DNA of 26,180 bases from a virus (Duplodnaviria; Heunggongvirae; Uroviricota; Caudoviricetes). The stretch is from positions 1 to 26,180 of IMG/VR virus record IMGVR_UViG_2698536580_000004; one strand, written 5' to 3'. Below are positions 13,170-18,984 of the stretch, in pieces. Both the position numbers and the translations under genes were made by a program. The notes under the pieces are model-generated. The model was not told where the DNA came from and did no database searches. It saw nothing but the letters and a program-made list of their open reading frames with translations. How positions within the stretch are numbered: position 1 is the first letter of the stretch; each line of letters begins with the position of its first letter.

Positions 13170-13870
13170 TAAATGGCGAGCTGAACAAGGAACAGTTCCG
13201 CCAGCTCCAGGAGGCGCTGAAAAAACTGGATTTACCTTCTGCGAAACGTCGCCGGCTGTTGTGGCGTATGGCGAAATACGGCGTGGAAGCTGCAGCAAAG
13301 CGTAATGTGCGCAATCAGCAGTCGCCGGAGGGTGATAAGTGGCAGGCGCGACAGACCCGGCGTAAAGGCAAAATGTTGCGCAATATGCCGAAACTGATCC
13401 GCATCCGGGAAATGCCTGAAACAGAGTCGGTCAGGCTGTATCTGGCCGGTGGTCATTACCGGAATGCGAAGGGAAATCTGCCCGCCGGCGTGGTGGGGTA
13501 TGTCCAGCAGAACGGCATGAGCGTGACCGTCAACCGTAAGCAGGTGGAAGGCCGTGAGCAGGGGGACAAGCCTGCATCACTGCGACAGGCGAAACGTCTG
13601 CGCAAGGCCGGGTATAAAGTCAGGCGCGGTAAGCGCTGGCGTAAGCCCGGTTATAAGGAAATACAGGAAAGGATGACCGCCAGACAGGTAGGTTTGCTTA
13701 TCCGGATACTGGAGGACAAACCGGTCAAAACGTCCTGGCAGATTGATTTACCTGCCAGGGCGTTTCTGGGGATAGGTCAGGATGATTTTAACAAAGCGCT
13801 GGCGCGACAGCTGCAGGCTATCGGGTTCGGCTGGGATGTTAACGCGCAGGATATCAGGGGGAGAGCATGA
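13166..13870 (+). CDS. virion morphogenesis / tail completion protein (gpS-like)
   Basis: 234 aa, basic; ATGA overlap; positional call only. Confidence 0.45.
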   Translation: MINGELNKEQFRQLQEALKKLDLPSAKRRRLLWRMAKYGVEAAAKRNVRNQQSPEGDKWQARQTRRKGKMLRNMPKLIRIREMPETESVRLYLAGGHYRNAKGNLPAGVVGYVQQNGMSVTVNRKQVEGREQGDKPASLRQAKRLRKAGYKVRRGKRWRKPGYKEIQERMTARQVGLLIRILEDKPVKTSWQIDLPARAFLGIGQDDFNKALARQLQAIGFGWDVNAQDIRGRA

Positions 13871-14994
13871 CCTGGCCAATTGTGACCGTAAACCAGGTAA
13901 ATCAGCTGCTGGGTGAAACCACGGAAGTGGAGCGCACGCTGCTGTTTATCGGCACGGGAACCAAAAATGTAGGTAAGACGCTGGCAGTTAACGCACAGAG
14001 TGATTTTGATGCGCTGCTGGGCGAGGGTGACAGCCCGTTAAAAAGTGATGTGCTGGCCGCACTGGCGAACGCCGGCCAGAACTGGTGGGGATTTGTTCAT
14101 GTGCTGGCCGCAGACAGCGAGCCGGGGGCATGGGTGGATGCCGTTAAGGCCGCACAGCTCTCCTGTTCGGTGGAAGGTGTGGTGCTGTCTGATGATGTGG
14201 CCGCGAAAGCGCAGATTAACCAGGCGGCAACGCTGCGATCTGAACTGATTGCTAAATACGGGCGCTGGGTGTGGTTCATTCTGGCGGTTCAGGGGATGCA
14301 GCAGGATGAAGCCCAGGCGGATTATCTGGTGCGTCTGTCCACTCTTCAGGAAGGTATTGCGGAAAAAGCGGTACAGCTGGTACCCCGTCTCTGGGGGAAT
14401 GAACCGGGCGTGCTGGCTGGTCGTCTCTGCAACCGTGCTGTCACCATCGCCGACAGTCCGGCGCGGGTGAAAACAGGCGCGTTGCTGAGCATGGGCAGTG
14501 ATGAACTGCCGAAAGACGGTGCCGGCGAAACGCTGGAACTGGCGACCCTTCAGGCGCTGGAGGCACAGCGCTACAGCGTGCCGATGTGGTATCCGGACTA
14601 TGACGGCTTTTACTGGGCTGACGGGCGCACGCTGGACGTTGAGGGCGGCGATTACCAGTCCATTGAGACGCTGCGTATTGTGGATAAGGCAGCACGCCGC
14701 GTCCGTCTGCTGGCCATCGGTAAGATTGCCGATCGCTCACTTAACAGTACACCGGGCAGTATTGCCGCACACCAGACGCTGTTTGCCCGTCCGCTGCGGG
14801 AAATGTCCACTGCGGCCAGCATTAACGGCGTGTCATTTCCGGGCGAGGTGAAACCTCCACAGGACGGTGACGTGACCATTGTCTGGAAGAACAAAAAGGC
14901 GGTGGATATTTACATTGTGGTGCGTACGTATGAAGTACCGCTGCAGATCACCATCAGTCTGTTACTGGATGCAAGTCTGGAGGCCAGCGCATGA
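13867..14994 (+). CDS. putative contractile tail sheath protein
   Basis: 375 aa, largest structural ORF directly upstream of a ~150-aa tube-sized gene in a tail with baseplate J-like and fibre genes; positional inference. Confidence 0.45.
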   Translation: MTWPIVTVNQVNQLLGETTEVERTLLFIGTGTKNVGKTLAVNAQSDFDALLGEGDSPLKSDVLAALANAGQNWWGFVHVLAADSEPGAWVDAVKAAQLSCSVEGVVLSDDVAAKAQINQAATLRSELIAKYGRWVWFILAVQGMQQDEAQADYLVRLSTLQEGIAEKAVQLVPRLWGNEPGVLAGRLCNRAVTIADSPARVKTGALLSMGSDELPKDGAGETLELATLQALEAQRYSVPMWYPDYDGFYWADGRTLDVEGGDYQSIETLRIVDKAARRVRLLAIGKIADRSLNSTPGSIAAHQTLFARPLREMSTAASINGVSFPGEVKPPQDGDVTIVWKNKKAVDIYIVVRTYEVPLQITISLLLDASLEASA

Positions 14995-15446
14995 CCAAAC
15001 GTATTTCAGGGATGTCCTTTGATATCTATCTGGACGGTGACCTGATCCACATTGAAAAAATTTCGCTGGATATTACCGATAACAGCGCCGCCGCACAGAC
15101 GCGCGGTGTTCCTGACGGGTATGTGGACGGTGACGTTGCCGCCGAGGGTGAAATTGAAGTCAGCTCCAAAGTGCTGCAGGTTCTGACAGCCAAAGCCCGT
15201 TCAGCGGGGTCATGGCGTGGCATTCCTCCGGTTGACTTCCTTTTTTACGCCAAAGCCGGCAGCGAAGAAATGAAAGTGGAAACCTTTGGTAACAAGCTGC
15301 AGCTCAACAGCGTTCTGGATGGTGATCCGAAGGGTGGCAGTGTGTCCACGCATAAAATCAAATACTTCGTGACAAGTCCGAAGTTCGTCAACATCAACGG
15401 TGTGCCGTATCTGGAAGCGGAAGCCACGGAAAACCTGATTGGATAA
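14991..15446 (+). CDS. putative tail tube protein
   Basis: 151 aa, ATGA-coupled to the putative sheath gene; positional inference. Confidence 0.45.
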   Translation: MTKRISGMSFDIYLDGDLIHIEKISLDITDNSAAAQTRGVPDGYVDGDVAAEGEIEVSSKVLQVLTAKARSAGSWRGIPPVDFLFYAKAGSEEMKVETFGNKLQLNSVLDGDPKGGSVSTHKIKYFVTSPKFVNINGVPYLEAEATENLIG

Positions 15447-15458
15447 GAGGCAGCAGGG

Positions 15459-15755
15459 ATGCAGGAGTACGAAAAGGGGTTCATTGCACTGGCAGTCATG
15501 GGGGCGCTGATTGCGCTGGGTAAATTGCTTAACAGTGATGAACCGATCACCCTTCGTCTGGTGGCGGGGCGTGTCATTGTGGGCAGCGGGCTGTCACTGA
15601 TTGCCGGGGTGGCGCTGTACTTTGTCCCGGATATTCACCCGCTCGCATTAGCCGGATTTGGCTCTGCGCTGGGTATCCTGGGGCAGAATGCGGTGGAAGC
15701 CTGGCTGCGTAAGCGGGGTTTTACAGGGATTTTTGATAAAGGGACAGGGAAATGA
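15459..15755 (+). CDS. holin (three predicted TM segments, charged C-terminus)
   Basis: 98 aa with hydrophobic segments FIALAVMGALIALGKLL, VIVGSGLSLIAGVALYFV, LALAGFGSALGILG and basic tail RKRGF; immediately upstream of the endolysin. Confidence 0.6.
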   Translation: MQEYEKGFIALAVMGALIALGKLLNSDEPITLRLVAGRVIVGSGLSLIAGVALYFVPDIHPLALAGFGSALGILGQNAVEAWLRKRGFTGIFDKGTGK

Positions 15756-16093
15756 CTCTGAGCGAAAAACAGCAACTCTTTACCGTTATGGTGGCAAATC
15801 TGATCCAGTGGGCTGAAGAACATGGCTACCGGCTGACGTTTGGTGAGGCTTACCGTACCCCGGAACAGGCTGCACTGAACGCGAAAAAAGGCAGCGGCAT
15901 TTCCAGCAGTCTGCACACGCAACGTCTGGCCGTGGACTTCAATCTGTTCATTAATGGCCAGTATCAGACCGACAGCGCGGCGTATCTGCCGCTGGGTGAA
16001 TACTGGGAATCGCTGGGTGGTTCATGGGGCGGTCGCTTCAAATCCCGCCCTGATGGTAATCATTTCAGCCTGGAACATAACGGGGTGCGCTGA
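15752..16093 (+). CDS. endolysin, M15-family zinc peptidase (L-Ala-D-Glu peptidase type)
   Basis: 113 aa; SLHTQRLAVD (H-x6-D) plus downstream DGNHFSLEH fit the His-Asp-His zinc site of M15 peptidases; ATGA overlap with the holin. Confidence 0.7.
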   Translation: MTLSEKQQLFTVMVANLIQWAEEHGYRLTFGEAYRTPEQAALNAKKGSGISSSLHTQRLAVDFNLFINGQYQTDSAAYLPLGEYWESLGGSWGGRFKSRPDGNHFSLEHNGVR

Positions 16094-16425
16094 TGGATCG
16101 CGTCGTGTCAGGCTGGTTATTCACTCTTGCTCTGGCATTTATAGCCGGCTGGAAAACGGCCGGCTGGCAGCGGGACAGTGTTGATCTGACTGTCTCAAAA
16201 GCGGTCACCGCGACCGGGGAACAACTGGCTGAAATTGCCGGTTCATCCGGTCGCCGGCTGGAAGACAAACTGGAGGCACTGAAAAATGCGCCACCGCGTG
16301 AAATCCGCACGGAAGTGGTTAAGCCGGTATTTACTAATAAGTGTCTGTCTGATGACTTTGTCCGCATGTACAACGACGCCGTCACCAGTACCGAACGTAC
16401 GTTATCAGGAAAACCTGAAAACTAA
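16093..16425 (+). CDS. i-spanin (Rz-like)
   Basis: 110 aa, N-terminal TM segment (WLFTLALAFIAGW) then a charged periplasmic region; start overlaps the endolysin stop (TGATG). Confidence 0.6.
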   Translation: MDRVVSGWLFTLALAFIAGWKTAGWQRDSVDLTVSKAVTATGEQLAEIAGSSGRRLEDKLEALKNAPPREIRTEVVKPVFTNKCLSDDFVRMYNDAVTSTERTLSGKPEN

Positions 16426-16585
16426 ATGCGCCACGCAGCTGCCGCGCCTGAGTGGAACGCAGGGAAAAGATGCGGCGGAATTACTGACACTTTATCTGGA
16501 GTTATACGGGCAGTGTGCTGCACGGCATAACGCACTTGTTGATGAAATTAATTTAAGAGAGAACGTTATTTATGGAAAAAATTAA
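16286..16585 (+). CDS. o-spanin lipoprotein (Rz1-like), out-of-frame overlap with i-spanin
   Basis: Different frame starting inside the i-spanin gene; signal peptide ending in lipobox LSAC (Cys codon 16367-16369) then Pro-rich TTTPSPVP; extends past the i-spanin stop. Confidence 0.55.
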   Translation: MRHRVKSARKWLSRYLLISVCLMTLSACTTTPSPVPNVRYQENLKTKCATQLPRLSGTQGKDAAELLTLYLELYGQCAARHNALVDEINLRENVIYGKN

Positions 16586-16829
16586 TCTGGTTGTATGCAA
16601 AAAAGAAATCACCTTTGAACCGAATCAGACTGCTTATAATAAGTTCATCAACGAAATGGCGATGGATAATAAAGTGGCACCTGCACACAATTATCTTGTG
16701 CGCATTGTGTCTGCTGAAAGTAAAGAGGCGCTGGAAGATATTCTGAAACGTCCGGGCGCAGCGCTCCAGCTTGCCGGGAAAGTGAATGAGCTTTATGCGC
16801 CAGAACTGGAAATTGAAGTAAAAAACTGA
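16572..16829 (+). CDS. tail assembly chaperone (short form)
   Basis: 85-aa AT-rich ORF directly upstream of the tape measure gene; ends with slippery A_AAA_AAC next to its stop. Confidence 0.55.
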   Translation: MEKINLVVCKKEITFEPNQTAYNKFINEMAMDNKVAPAHNYLVRIVSAESKEALEDILKRPGAALQLAGKVNELYAPELEIEVKN

Positions 16830-17020
16830 CAAAACGAGTCCGGGCAATTGAACAGAACGGACTCGAACAGTATTTAATTTTACGTCGCCATTATTTACCA
16901 CACGGTCAGGATTCCGTGGATGATATTTCCGCTGCCATCTGGCTGGATAATCGCCACTGGGAAAATATGCGAATAGCGGTTGCTAACGGAATCAGCACTG
17001 CATTTAAAGGCACGGAATGA
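16572..17020 (+). CDS. tail assembly chaperone, -1 frameshift-extended form (shift at 16820-16826)
   Basis: After a -1 slip on A_AAA_AAC the frame from 16826 is open for 64 codons (LTKRVRAIEQNG...AFKGTE) and stops at TGA 17018-17020, overlapping the tape measure ATG 17017. Confidence 0.5.
16820..16826 (+). other. candidate -1 programmed ribosomal frameshift slippery heptamer A_AAA_AAC
   Basis: X_XXY_YYZ heptamer directly before the chaperone stop codon; the -1 frame is open to the tape measure start. Confidence 0.5.
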
Positions 17021-18984
17021 AACAGTTAGATTTTACATTAAGCCTGATTGATAAGCTGACGCGCCCGTTAAAACAGGCGCAGGGCAGCGTCACCGGCTTT
17101 GCGGAAAAATCAAAAGCGGCCTTTTCGCAGATTGGCGGCGGCGTGCTGGGGCTGGCCGGTACGGGGATGGCCATAAAAGGCGCGTTATCGCCGGCTATCG
17201 AAATGTACGACGCGCTGAATGATGCCGCCGCAAAAGGGATTGATAATCAGGCATTAAAGACCGTACAGCGTGACGCGCTCCGGTTCAGCATGACCTACGG
17301 TGCCAGCGCGGTGGAGTTCGTCAAATCCACAGAGAACATTAACGCTTCCATTGCCGGCCTTACCGCCAGCGAGCTGCCGAAAGTGACGAAGGTCGCTAAT
17401 ACGCTGGCGTTTGCCCTGAAATCCACATCCGCCGACACGGCGGAGTTCATGGGGCAGATGTACGGTAACTTTTCCGCCGATGCGGCGCGGCTGGGTAAAG
17501 TCCAGTTCGCCGAGCAACTGGCGGGAAAAATGGTGTATATGCGCAAGGTCTTCGGTACCGAAATGGGTACCATCAAAGACCTGATGGAAGGGGCGCGGGG
17601 TGTCGGGACTAACTACGGCGTCGGGCTGGATGAACAGCTGGCGGTGCTGGGACAGCTAAATCGTACGCTGGGGACAGAAGCCAGCAGCGCTTATGAAGGT
17701 TTCATGACCGGCGCGATGGAGGGAGCTAAAAAGCTGGGGCTGTCCTTCACGGACTCCACCGGCAAAATGCTGTCCATGCCTGAAATGCTGATCAAGCTGC
17801 AGGGCAAATACGGCAAAAGCCTGGAAGGGAACCTGAAAGCCCAGGCGGAGCTGGATGCGGCATTTGGTGACAGTTCAGCGGTGATAAAACACCTGTACGG
17901 CAATGTGGCGTTACTGCAGCGTAATATCACCGAACTGGGCGGCTCTGACGGGCTGAAGCGTACACAGGAGATGGCCGGGAAGCTGGTCAAGCCGTGGGAT
18001 CGCTTTGTACAAATCCTTAAAGCCATTCAGACGGTGATCGGACTGACGTTGATCCCGGTTCTGTACCCGGTACTGAACCGCCTGGCCGATATGGGGCAGA
18101 CGTTCGGCCGCTGGATGCAGATGTTTCCCAACATTGCGCGGGTGATTGGTTACGTGCAGCTTGCGCTGTTTGGCGTGGCGGCAGCGGGCGCGATGACAAA
18201 TATTGTCATGGGTGTCTCAAAATTTATCCTGGTGGGACTGAAGGGACTCTGGAGCGCCCTGACGCTGGTCACGAAGATTTACACGGCCACGGTCTGGGTT
18301 GCCTCAAAAGCTGTTGTGGCGTGGAACCTGACGCTGAAATTCCTGCGGGGTACGCTGCTGGCCGTGCGCATGGCGGCGATTATGGCCGGTATTGGCATCA
18401 ACCTGATGAGCTGGCCGGTTCTGCTGGTTATCGGGGCGATTGCTCTGCTGGCAGCCGGGTGTTATCTGCTGATTAAACACTGGGATGATGTGAAAGCGGC
18501 GGTGATGAATACGGCAGCGTTTACCGCCGTGGCTGGTGTGGTGGAATGGCTTGCCGGCCTGTTTTCCGCTGCGTGGCAATGGATCACGGACGGCTGGAAC
18601 AGCTTTATTGCGCTGCTGACCGGGTTTTCACCGTCACAGGCGCTAAGCGGCATGGCCAGCGGGATTGTCTCCCTGTTTGATAACGTCTGGCAGACCATCA
18701 AAGGCGGGTTCCTGAAATCGTGGAACTGGATTGTCGGAAAGCTCAATAAAATTCCGGGCGTCGATATTTCACTGGCGAACGAATCTCAACCGGCACTGAC
18801 AACGAATACCCTTTCTACTGGCGGTGAATTAAAAGGCGTTGATAAAGGCGGTATCAGTAAAACAATTAGCAGTAATTCTAAATCAGTAACGGATAACAGC
18901 CGTAAAATTGGTGAAGTGCATTTTCATACTAAAGAAGCGCTTTCACCCTCCCAGCTAATGGAATGGCAGGAGCTTAATGCGTGA
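17017..18984 (+). CDS. tail tape measure protein
   Basis: 655 aa, Ala/Gly-rich helical N-terminal part, several hydrophobic segments in the C-terminal half; directly downstream of the chaperone pair. Confidence 0.75.
   Translation: MKQLDFTLSLIDKLTRPLKQAQGSVTGFAEKSKAAFSQIGGGVLGLAGTGMAIKGALSPAIEMYDALNDAAAKGIDNQALKTVQRDALRFSMTYGASAVEFVKSTENINASIAGLTASELPKVTKVANTLAFALKSTSADTAEFMGQMYGNFSADAARLGKVQFAEQLAGKMVYMRKVFGTEMGTIKDLMEGARGVGTNYGVGLDEQLAVLGQLNRTLGTEASSAYEGFMTGAMEGAKKLGLSFTDSTGKMLSMPEMLIKLQGKYGKSLEGNLKAQAELDAAFGDSSAVIKHLYGNVALLQRNITELGGSDGLKRTQEMAGKLVKPWDRFVQILKAIQTVIGLTLIPVLYPVLNRLADMGQTFGRWMQMFPNIARVIGYVQLALFGVAAAGAMTNIVMGVSKFILVGLKGLWSALTLVTKIYTATVWVASKAVVAWNLTLKFLRGTLLAVRMAAIMAGIGINLMSWPVLLVIGAIALLAAGCYLLIKHWDDVKAAVMNTAAFTAVAGVVEWLAGLFSAAWQWITDGWNSFIALLTGFSPSQALSGMASGIVSLFDNVWQTIKGGFLKSWNWIVGKLNKIPGVDISLANESQPALTTNTLSTGGELKGVDKGGISKTISSNSKSVTDNSRKIGEVHFHTKEALSPSQLMEWQELNA

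Follow-up and report, generated by a model that had tools for sequence, protein, structure and literature searches.

A predicted programmed -1 ribosomal frameshift that would extend the tail assembly chaperone of an HP1/ESSI-2-type prophage

Introduction

Between a short gene for a putative tail assembly chaperone and the start of the tape measure gene, the prophage analysed here carries a 190-nt stretch without any listed open reading frame of at least 60 aa. The question raised by this locus is whether the stretch is translated and, if so, from which start and as part of which product. In the first-pass annotation it was proposed that ribosomes enter it by a programmed -1 frameshift on the heptamer A_AAA_AAC, in the G/GT-type arrangement of long-tailed phages. 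In the following, the window denotes the whole stretch of DNA that was analysed (26,180 nt), and all coordinates refer to it.

Results

The window, 98.5% identical to Escherichia phage ESSI2_ev239, represents a P2/HP1-like myovirus prophage, a member of the Peduoviridae with a contractile tail. Open reading frames and Pfam matches place the pair of short frames under study directly upstream of the tape measure gene (17017..18984, + strand, 655 aa; PF10145 PhageMin_Tail, E=1.8e-21) and downstream of the tail tube gene (14991-15446; PF10772). The HP1-type sheath and tube genes precede the chaperone locus; as in HP1, the genes for tube and chaperone are set apart by a holin/endolysin/spanin cassette.

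The first frame of the pair (16572..16829, + strand) encodes 85 aa and matched Pfam PF10963 Phage_TAC_10 over the entire profile (1-82 of 82; E=1.3e-35, 121.9 bits, gathering cutoff 25.7). In RefSeq relatives this gene is named 'putative tail assembly chaperone'. From its sequence we infer that the 85-aa chaperone, terminating at TGA 16827-16829, is the major product of the locus. The frame ends in ...EIEVKN with the codons GTA (16818-20), AAA (16821-23), AAC (16824-26) and TGA (16827-29), so the slippery heptamer A_AAA_AAC (16820..16826, + strand), which was identified by sequence and conservation, lies in X_XXY_YYZ phase directly before the stop. All coordinates given for this arrangement in the first-pass annotation hold. 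The 0-frame stop directly 3' of the heptamer (16827..16829, + strand) is a possible 'shifty stop' contributor.

Retranslation of the -1 frame from 16826 yielded the same 64 residues that had been read by hand, followed by TGA 17018-17020 (extension at 16826..17020, + strand, the putative T/E' analogue). The stop overlaps the tape measure ATG at 17017 as ATGA, and the same overlap was present in 122 of 144 related loci. Residues 19-62 of the extension matched the complete profile of Pfam PF21830 DUF6890 (1-44 of 44; E=1.2e-25, 89.4 bits, cutoff 23.6). The predicted fusion of G and extension would comprise 149 aa with the junction ...EIEVKN-LTKRVRAIE.... Three-frame translation further revealed a TGA at 16814..16816 (+ strand) that closes the -1 frame upstream, a feature absent from the first-pass annotation. 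Consequently, both frames are open together only within 16817-16829, little more than the heptamer, and a frame change is possible nowhere else. A similar confinement was found in 112 of the 144 loci, in which the -1 frame is open for just 3 codons ahead of the slip point.

The occurrence of the heptamer alone is not beyond chance, as AAAAAAC was found 11 times in the window, with 6.0 +/- 2.2 expected. The comparison set consisted of 144 related loci, ranging from Enterobacteriaceae to Kistimonas and encoding 85 distinct extension proteins of 63-64 aa. At the heptamer position, AAAAAAC was found in 142 loci and AAAAAAA in two, and a stop codon followed directly in all 144 (TGA in 80, TAA in 60, TAG in 4). 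One apparent exception, L020, carries an indel inside G and has kept the motif. The Val/Ile/Leu codon before the AAA of the heptamer always ends in A (GTA, ATA or CTA), these being rare codons that supply the first A; the contig scan used the peptide pattern P[EK]LEIEVK abutting the heptamer, which could inflate the apparent conservation of these preceding codons. A tblastn search of phage records is free of this bias. Relatives down to 35% identity keep both the frame relation and the heptamer: HP1, K139, phiO18P, yong1, ACA1 and phi3 (35-58% identity) carry A_AAA_AAN (C/A/G) at the homologous codons. Judged from these alignments, conservation of the heptamer in phase and at the same position, in 144/144 analysable loci and six distant phages, is far beyond chance. 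The heptamer adjoins the stop also in HP1, K139, phiO18P and yong1, but not in ACA1 and phi3, where G ends 8 codons later, which indicates that the heptamer and not the stop is the invariant element.

This distribution bears on a model of termination and reinitiation, in which ribosomes that terminate at TGA 16827 would initiate again on the overlapping CTG 16826 (CTGA) to give a free 64-aa extension. The CTG does overlap the TGA in the window, and overlapping stop/start coupling is common in the operon, as in the ATGA at 17017-17020. However, the codon is CTA, which is not an initiation codon, in 64 of the 144 loci (with TAA or TAG as stops) and ATA in two, and in ACA1 and phi3 the stop follows the conserved heptamer at a distance of 8 codons. 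The probability of this model is regarded as practically negligible.

Codon variation in the comparison set revealed a clear coding signature of the extension. Entropy at the three codon positions was 0.49/0.37/1.18, and the ratio of synonymous to nonsynonymous codon differences was 1.33 in the extension frame vs 0.11 and 0.06 in the other two frames. The third-position bias was already present in codons 2-18 of the extension (0.49/0.52/1.17), upstream of any candidate start. From the pattern of substitutions, purifying selection in the -1 frame is seen to start right after the heptamer.

A conserved start codon for the extension was not found. The first canonical start in the -1 frame occurs at 16 different positions among the 144 loci, between codons 2 and 57, and four loci lack any. 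These data have to be weighed against annotation of the locus as two separate genes, with an internal start (GTG 16916 in the window, TTG in relatives) producing a free 'DUF6890 family protein' of 34-47 aa. Such a small CDS is annotated separately in PGAP and RefSeq records. In the window, a 34-aa frame from GTG 16916 is the sole + strand ORF listed within the gap, and its GTG is preceded by AGGA (16908-16911) at 4-nt spacing, so that a candidate for an independent start with a Shine-Dalgarno-like sequence, which the first-pass annotation had named as evidence against a frameshift, does exist in this sequence. It is, however, not conserved: GTG is found at codon 30 in only 16/144 loci, and the TTG used by RefSeq in ev239 reads TTA in the window. 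Moreover, the 29 codons before GTG 16916 (entropy 0.46/0.41/1.20) carry the same coding signature as the remaining extension and are kept as protein as far as HP1 and K139. An open -1 frame beginning exactly at the heptamer would be left unexplained if the two were separate genes, a model that is therefore considered very unlikely indeed.

A search for a stimulatory structure at 16830-16900 had been suggested, and a candidate frameshift stimulator was found there. The hairpin CGAGUCCG(15-nt loop)CGGACUCG (16835..16865, + strand) has a stem of 8 bp, made from rare codons, and begins 8 nt after the heptamer. The minimum free energy (MFE) of its 81-nt context was -17.0 kcal/mol (z = -2.5), and that of the hairpin alone -14.2. 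A stem of at least 8 bp at a spacer of 5-9 nt was obtained in 0.4% of synonymous recodings; the MFE of the whole region was not significantly lower than that of synonymous recodings (p = 0.11), and the position-specific stem test alone was significant. Of the 65 close-clade sequences, 55 had all pairs of the stem (8/8). In this clade, pair 23-39 of the hairpin was read as GC in 36, AU in 24 and GU in 5 sequences, and one pair alone showed real double-sided covariation. RNAalifold yielded only a weak partial helix on the close clade and no consensus structure on all 99 distinct sequences; the hairpin is not conserved in distant clades, and other clades have different hairpins or none. An Rfam scan of 16500-17100 returned only chance-level matches far below gathering scores. 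On the 5' side of the heptamer, where a Shine-Dalgarno-like stimulator was looked for by eye, only GGA was seen in CTGGAAAT.

A pseudoknot between the loop sequence AAUUGAA and a downstream UUUAAUU was also considered. Pairing was found in 77.8% of cells, but the outer pair was unpaired in 59/99 sequences, and the helix is AU-rich and lies inside conserved Ile-Glu and Tyr-Leu-Ile codons. A pseudoknot is not claimed.

The extension frame could also be reached without a shift of the ribosome if RNA polymerase added one A in the A6 run, which would place G and the extension in a single frame (...EVKK-LTKR...). A one-base insertion leads to the same downstream frame as a -1 slip, 6-7 consecutive A are conserved, and the rare NTA codons that lengthen this run would favour transcriptional slippage too. 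Efficient slippage of bacterial RNA polymerase, however, needs runs of about 8-9 or more; across about 150 loci the run stays at 6-7 and is nowhere longer. All forms of the motif, A_AAA_AAG in phi3 among them, furthermore obey the ribosomal X_XXY_YYZ rule. The downstream mRNA hairpin, kept up with rare codons, has the 8-nt spacing that is typical of ribosomal frameshift stimulators, and it would have no role in transcriptional slippage. As an explanation of the locus, transcriptional slippage is thus very unlikely, although a minor contribution from it may occur.

Discussion

Taken together, the arrangement of the locus and its conservation make it highly probable that the tail assembly chaperone gene of this HP1/ESSI-2-type (Peduoviridae) prophage contains a programmed -1 ribosomal frameshift, as had been proposed in the first-pass annotation. 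The majority of ribosomes would translate 16572-16826 and stop at TGA 16827, releasing the 85-aa chaperone. A minority would slip back by one nucleotide on A_AAA_AAC, with the P-site tRNA-Lys and the A-site tRNA-Asn re-pairing on AAA_AAA. Reading would then resume at CTG 16826 and continue for 64 codons to TGA 17018, giving the 149-aa fusion with DUF6890 in its C-terminal part. A delay in decoding the neighbouring stop and the hairpin at 16835-16865 would probably favour the slip. On the model of lambda G/GT and P2 E/E+E', the N-terminal part common to both products would cover the tape measure protein, the less abundant extension would bring in the tail tube protein, and the efficiency of frameshifting would set the product ratio needed for tail assembly.

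The same motif, A_AAA_AAC, serves a low-efficiency frameshift on enterobacterial ribosomes in E. coli IS1 insA-insB', a transposase gene that is unrelated to the present locus in protein and context. In E. coli, A_AAA_AAC is known to be prone to shifting, but only to a moderate degree (Atkins et al., 2016; PMC5009743), which fits a low GT:G ratio.

The contact between heptamer and stop, invariant in the 144 loci as well as in HP1, K139, phiO18P and yong1, allows a more specific reading that we put forward only tentatively and regard as rather doubtful. Here, peptidyl-tRNA-Asn would slip while the A site awaits a release factor. Termination would then compete with the slip, so that the ratio of chaperone to fusion would depend on the activity of release factors and on the physiology of the host, and not on a tandem slip of two tRNAs as in lambda or P2. 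DUF6890 would, in the same reading, serve as the domain that recruits the tube, in a family of chaperones with no sequence relationship to P2 E'.

Predicted junction peptides differ between the possible events. A ribosomal slip after incorporation of Asn, whether tandem or at a shifty stop, would give the Glu-C peptide VKNLTKRVRAIE, whereas VKKLTKRVRAIE would arise from a slip in the P site alone, with AAC not yet decoded, or from transcriptional insertion of an A. Mass spectrometry had been suggested for virions or induced lysates; on virions it would probably fail, since mature lambda particles contain neither G nor GT (PMC5009743).

The G/GT-type arrangement that was initially assigned stands, although the phage is a contractile-tailed member of the Peduoviridae and its nearest characterised analogue is P2 E/E+E' rather than lambda G/GT. 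P2 gpE and gpE+E' are produced by a -1 frameshift in the FETUD tail operon (NC_001895) of a phage of the same family. They are encoded at the same place directly upstream of the tape measure gene, with the end of the extension likewise overlapping the tape measure start, and their sizes are 91/142 aa compared with 85/149 aa here. The two loci differ in their slippery sites (T_TTT_TTG located 6 codons before the stop in P2, A_AAA_AAC abutting the stop here), in the lysis cassette that is found here, unlike in P2, between the tube and chaperone genes, and in their protein families (PF10109 Phage_TAC_7 and PF06528 Phage_P2_GpE in P2, PF10963 and PF21830 here). Searches for homology to P2 E/E' gave no BLASTP match, an hhalign probability of 0.3% and no Pfam match to PF10109 or PF06528. 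By analogy, the locus would thus work like P2 E/E+E' without being a member of the same sequence family.

With lambda gpG/gpGT, and with the tail-chaperone frameshift that is conserved among long-tailed dsDNA phages (Xu, Hendrix & Duda, 2004; reviewed in PMC5009743), the locus shares the predicted pair of products with a common N-terminus, made in a fixed ratio by -1 slippage, and the location of the genes between tube and tape measure. In the lambda-type pair, binding to the tape measure protein is expected of the G part, and binding to the tube protein of the T part (PMC5009743). Lambda is, however, a siphovirus with the heptamer G_GGA_AAG and no sequence homology to the locus, and the corresponding roles of the parts are transferred here by inference. 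A search of PDB sequences with a 9-sequence profile gave no credible match (best E = 0.17).

The closest precedent in annotation is Pseudoalteromonas phage ACA1 gp36/gp36a (OR438928), a homologous HP1-type chaperone of the PF10963 family with about 36% identity and the heptamer A_AAA_AAA at the homologous Val-Lys-Lys/Asn codons. Its depositors joined the two frames into one CDS with a 'projected programmed frameshift analogous to that in phage P2', that is, a frameshift that was projected and not demonstrated. In the part of the literature that could be searched, no report of a frameshift or fusion was found for HP1/ESSI-2-type phages, DUF6890 or Phage_TAC_10. The frameshift is annotated in the ACA1 record only. 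For ESSI-2/HP1-type Peduoviridae, RefSeq/PGAP and the majority of GenBank entries show two genes at the locus, one for a 'putative tail assembly chaperone' and a separate one for a free-standing 'DUF6890 family protein'; the same split is found in prophages of E. coli, Salmonella, Enterobacter, Xenorhabdus, Photorhabdus and others, and some records leave a 190-nt gap.

The locus belongs to the known G/GT and P2 E/E+E' kind and is mostly unannotated, so that the main value of the finding lies in annotation; it holds nothing surprising and leaves the knowledge of phage tail assembly unchanged. The sequence data indicate that DUF6890 would be the frameshift-encoded C-terminal domain of the Phage_TAC_10 chaperone, which provides a likely function for DUF6890 and for two PHROGs of unknown function, phrog_1214 and phrog_7050. 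In addition, the related loci form a large and clean collection of natural sites in gamma-proteobacterial phages where a stop adjoins A_AAA_AAC, which could be used to train frameshift predictors and could show how an adjacent stop and variable hairpins tune low-level frameshifting.

Results

The 85-aa chaperone ORF (16572-16829, + strand) ends in ...PELEIEVKN, and its last codons are GTA (16818-20), AAA (16821-23), AAC (16824-26) and TGA (16827-29). Therefore, the heptamer A_AAA_AAC (16820-16826) has the X_XXY_YYZ phase required for a tandem -1 slip. Translation of the -1 frame from 16826 yielded LTKRVRAIEQNGLEQYLILRRHYLPHGQDSVDDISAAIWLDNRHWENMRIAVANGISTAFKGTE, followed by TGA 17018-17020, which overlaps the ATG at 17017 of the 655-aa tape measure ORF. 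Three-frame translation located the upstream TGA of the -1 frame at 16814-16816, and only 16817-16829, i.e. the heptamer and the stop, is open in both frames. The first-pass annotation had claimed a programmed -1 frameshift in the tail assembly chaperone at 16572-17020; all its coordinates agreed with the sequence and the ORF listing, and its hand translation was reproduced upon re-translation. AAAAAAC occurs 11 times in the window (about 6 expected), and the heptamer taken alone is proof of nothing.

The chaperone belongs to Pfam PF10963 (Phage_TAC_10, E=1.3e-35) and the -1 extension to PF21830 (DUF6890, E=1.2e-25); the corresponding PHROGs are phrog_1214 and phrog_7050, each labelled 'unknown function'. 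Neighboring genes encode the sheath (13867-14994, PF10758), the tube (14991-15446, PF10772 'HP1 Orf24'), a holin (PF04550), an M15 endolysin and i-/o-spanins (together 15459-16585), the tape measure (PF10145) and baseplate proteins. Identity of the window over the frameshift-locus stretch is 98.5% with Escherichia phage ESSI2_ev239 (Peduoviridae, Evevirus) and about 80% with other ESSI-2-like phages. The complete lysis cassette (15459-16585) separates the tail tube gene from the chaperone gene, which is the HP1-type order, whereas in P2 gene E directly follows FII without an intervening cassette. Within the cassette, an o-spanin-like ORF (16286-16585, +), read in another frame, overlaps the i-spanin gene (16093-16425, +) over the 3' part of the latter. 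It carries a lipobox (...LSAC) and extends 14 nt into the chaperone gene; its weak Pfam LysC/Rz1-like match scores 22.7 bits, short of the gathering score (27). The ev040 and YenM324 records annotate this ORF, whereas the RefSeq record of ev239 omits it.

Homologous loci were collected by a search with a profile built from the predicted fusion (61 from bacterial genomes, 80 from viral contigs), giving a comparative set of 147 sequences including the window and five phage loci. Two incomplete contigs and one Enterobacter sp. EA-1 locus (L020) were set aside, leaving 144 loci with 85 distinct extension proteins from Escherichia, Salmonella, Enterobacter, Yersinia, Xenorhabdus, Photorhabdus, Providencia and Arsenophonus, out to Kistimonas. 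L020 (1500-1930) has a frame-breaking indel in the chaperone gene upstream of an intact heptamer (GTAAAAAACTGA) and extension, reflecting prophage decay or else a misassembly.

The heptamer was AAAAAAC in 142 of the 144 loci and AAAAAAA in two. It was always preceded by a Val, Ile or Leu codon in the rare A-ending form (GTA, ATA, CTA), a conservation that may be enriched by one of the peptide patterns of the genome scan, P[EK]LEIEVK, which adjoins the heptamer. A 0-frame stop abutted it in all loci (TGA 80, TAA 60, TAG 4), and the extension, always in the -1 frame, comprised 63 or 64 codons, its stop overlapping the tape measure ATG in 122. A tblastn search, free of this pattern bias, retrieved 76 phage records, nearly all as two pieces in two frames. 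At the homologous codons of six distant phages, inspected by hand, HP1 has GTA_AAA_AAC_TAA, K139 CTA_AAA_AAC_TAA, phiO18P GTA_AAA_AAC_TGA and yong1 GTA_AAA_AAA_TAG, while ACA1 (GTA_AAA_AAA_TCG...) and phi3 (GTA_AAA_AAG_CGC...) have their stop 8 codons further on. The slippery heptamer is therefore the invariant element across the Phage_TAC_10 family.

Selection on the extension was analyzed in 98 distinct 192-nt sequences. Column entropy averaged 0.49/0.37/1.18 at the three -1-frame codon positions overall, 0.49/0.52/1.17 for codons 2-18 alone and 0.46/0.41/1.20 for codons 2-29, and the synonymous:nonsynonymous ratio of codon differences was 1.33 in the -1 frame, against 0.11 and 0.06 in the remaining frames. 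Comparative sequence data thus indicate that the extension is protein-coding from its first codon, and therefore that translation enters the -1 frame at or before the first codons, where the heptamer is the sole entry point. The RefSeq model, a free protein initiated at an internal start, is highly improbable, as the extension is already coding upstream of such a start. The first canonical -1-frame start lies at 16 different positions among the 144 loci and is lacking in four; in the window it is a sole GTG (16916), 30 codons in, shared at that position by 16 of the 144 relatives. This GTG is preceded by AGGA at 16908-16911 (AGGA-N4-GTG, 16908-16918), and judging from this motif a minor free 34-aa product could be made in this particular phage. 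Termination followed by restart at CTG 16826 can be practically dismissed, as 64 loci have CTA and two have ATA at this codon.

The first-pass annotation had also called for a search for a downstream stimulatory RNA structure, and a candidate was present: 16835-16865, beginning 8 nt 3' of the heptamer, folds as CGAGUCCG-(15 nt)-CGGACUCG (8 bp, -14.2 kcal/mol). Every pair joins one synonymous and one constrained site, and the stem needs codons that are rare in the structural genes of this phage (CGA 2%, CTC 4%, GGA 11% of their synonymous sets). Only 0.4% of 20,000 synonymous recodings produced an uninterrupted stem of at least 8 bp at a spacer of 5-9 nt. In the close clade (65 distinct sequences sharing 70% or more identity with the window over the first 23 extension codons) the helix was fully intact in 55 and retained at least 7 of 8 pairs in 60. 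Its apical pair was GC in 36, AU in 24 and GU in 5 with no mismatch, the switch coupling an Arg-to-Gln/His change with a synonymous AAC-to-AAT change. The minimum free energy of the whole region was not significantly lower than in synonymous recodings (p = 0.11), RNAalifold found no consensus structure across all clades, and Rfam gave no match at the locus. A pseudoknot between the hairpin loop and downstream sequence was unsupported on testing.

Vibrio phage yong1 (L149, 849-900) has a perfect 14-bp stem just 3' of the heptamer (z = -3.7). Other distant hairpins comprise long stems in Xenorhabdus (L038), GGCGCG/CGCGCC in Ewingella and one at +6 in Kistimonas (L064), and no obvious hairpin follows the heptamer in HP1, YenM324 or ACA1. 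The hairpin at 16835-16865 is thus a probable clade-specific stimulator, and the strong non-homologous hairpins suggest that downstream stimulators evolved repeatedly and independently. Slippage may be further aided by a 'shifty stop' effect of the stop that abuts the heptamer throughout the clade, because slow A-site decoding favours it. Transcriptional insertion of one A into the A6 run is very unlikely as the main route: the run never exceeds seven A and an mRNA hairpin is maintained downstream. A minor contribution is possible, and its product would read VKK-L instead of VKN-L.

Discussion

Phase, family-wide heptamer and coding extension agree with the -1 frameshift of the first-pass annotation, whose reading is strongly supported by this comparative evidence. 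Most ribosomes would stop at 16827 and release the 85-aa chaperone, while a few percent or fewer would slip on A_AAA_AAC to make a 149-aa protein (...EIEVKN-LTKRVRAIE...). In E. coli, A_AAA_AAC is far less shift-prone than A_AAA_AAG (Atkins et al., 2016, PMC5009743), in keeping with a protein required at low levels. The tape measure protein of lambda acquires a coat of many G and a few GT molecules (ratio about 30:1, both absent from the virion), with the T part acting as recruiter of the tube protein (PMC5009743). By position and analogy, the Phage_TAC_10 part would be the binding partner of the 655-aa tape measure protein, and DUF6890 that of the HP1-type tube protein. The locus shares every sequence-level feature of the class with lambda G/GT and with P2 E/E+E', its equivalent in the virus family of the window phage. 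However, it differs from P2 E/E' in sequence family (no BLASTP match, hhalign probability 0.3%, different Pfam families), and a PDB sequence search found no detectably related solved structure.

In public records the frames were joined in none of the five close phages, which show either a gap or an internally started 'hypothetical protein' of 46-59 aa. In E. coli chromosomes, PGAP calls a 'putative phage tail assembly chaperone' and a separate 'DUF6890 family protein'; the latter, a free 46-aa CDS, is called systematically in NZ_AP023286 (L154, 681-821) and another 38 E. coli genomes from an internal TTG that reads TTA in the window. Truncated calls of this type appear to underlie PF21830 and phrog_7050. 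Orf30 of Vibrio phage K139 (L151, 232-810), annotated as one 192-aa ORF, joins an N-terminus resembling a lipoprotein signal (LLLSGC, o-spanin-like) to a C-terminal chaperone, and may represent either a genuine same-frame read-through of two genes or a start called too far upstream. In a single record, that of Pseudoalteromonas phage ACA1, the two frames of the homologous gene are joined into one CDS, a 'projected programmed frameshift analogous to that in phage P2'.

The finding is real and ordinary in kind: the phenomenon is textbook, and at least one GenBank record already projects it for this protein family. No publication on it in ESSI-2/HP1-type phages was found in the literature searched, outside which lay Xu et al. 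(2004) and Christie et al. (2002). Added here are the instance in this prophage group, evidence of universality in the family, the clade-specific hairpin and the reading of DUF6890 as a frameshift-encoded domain, and the main use of the finding is annotation correction.
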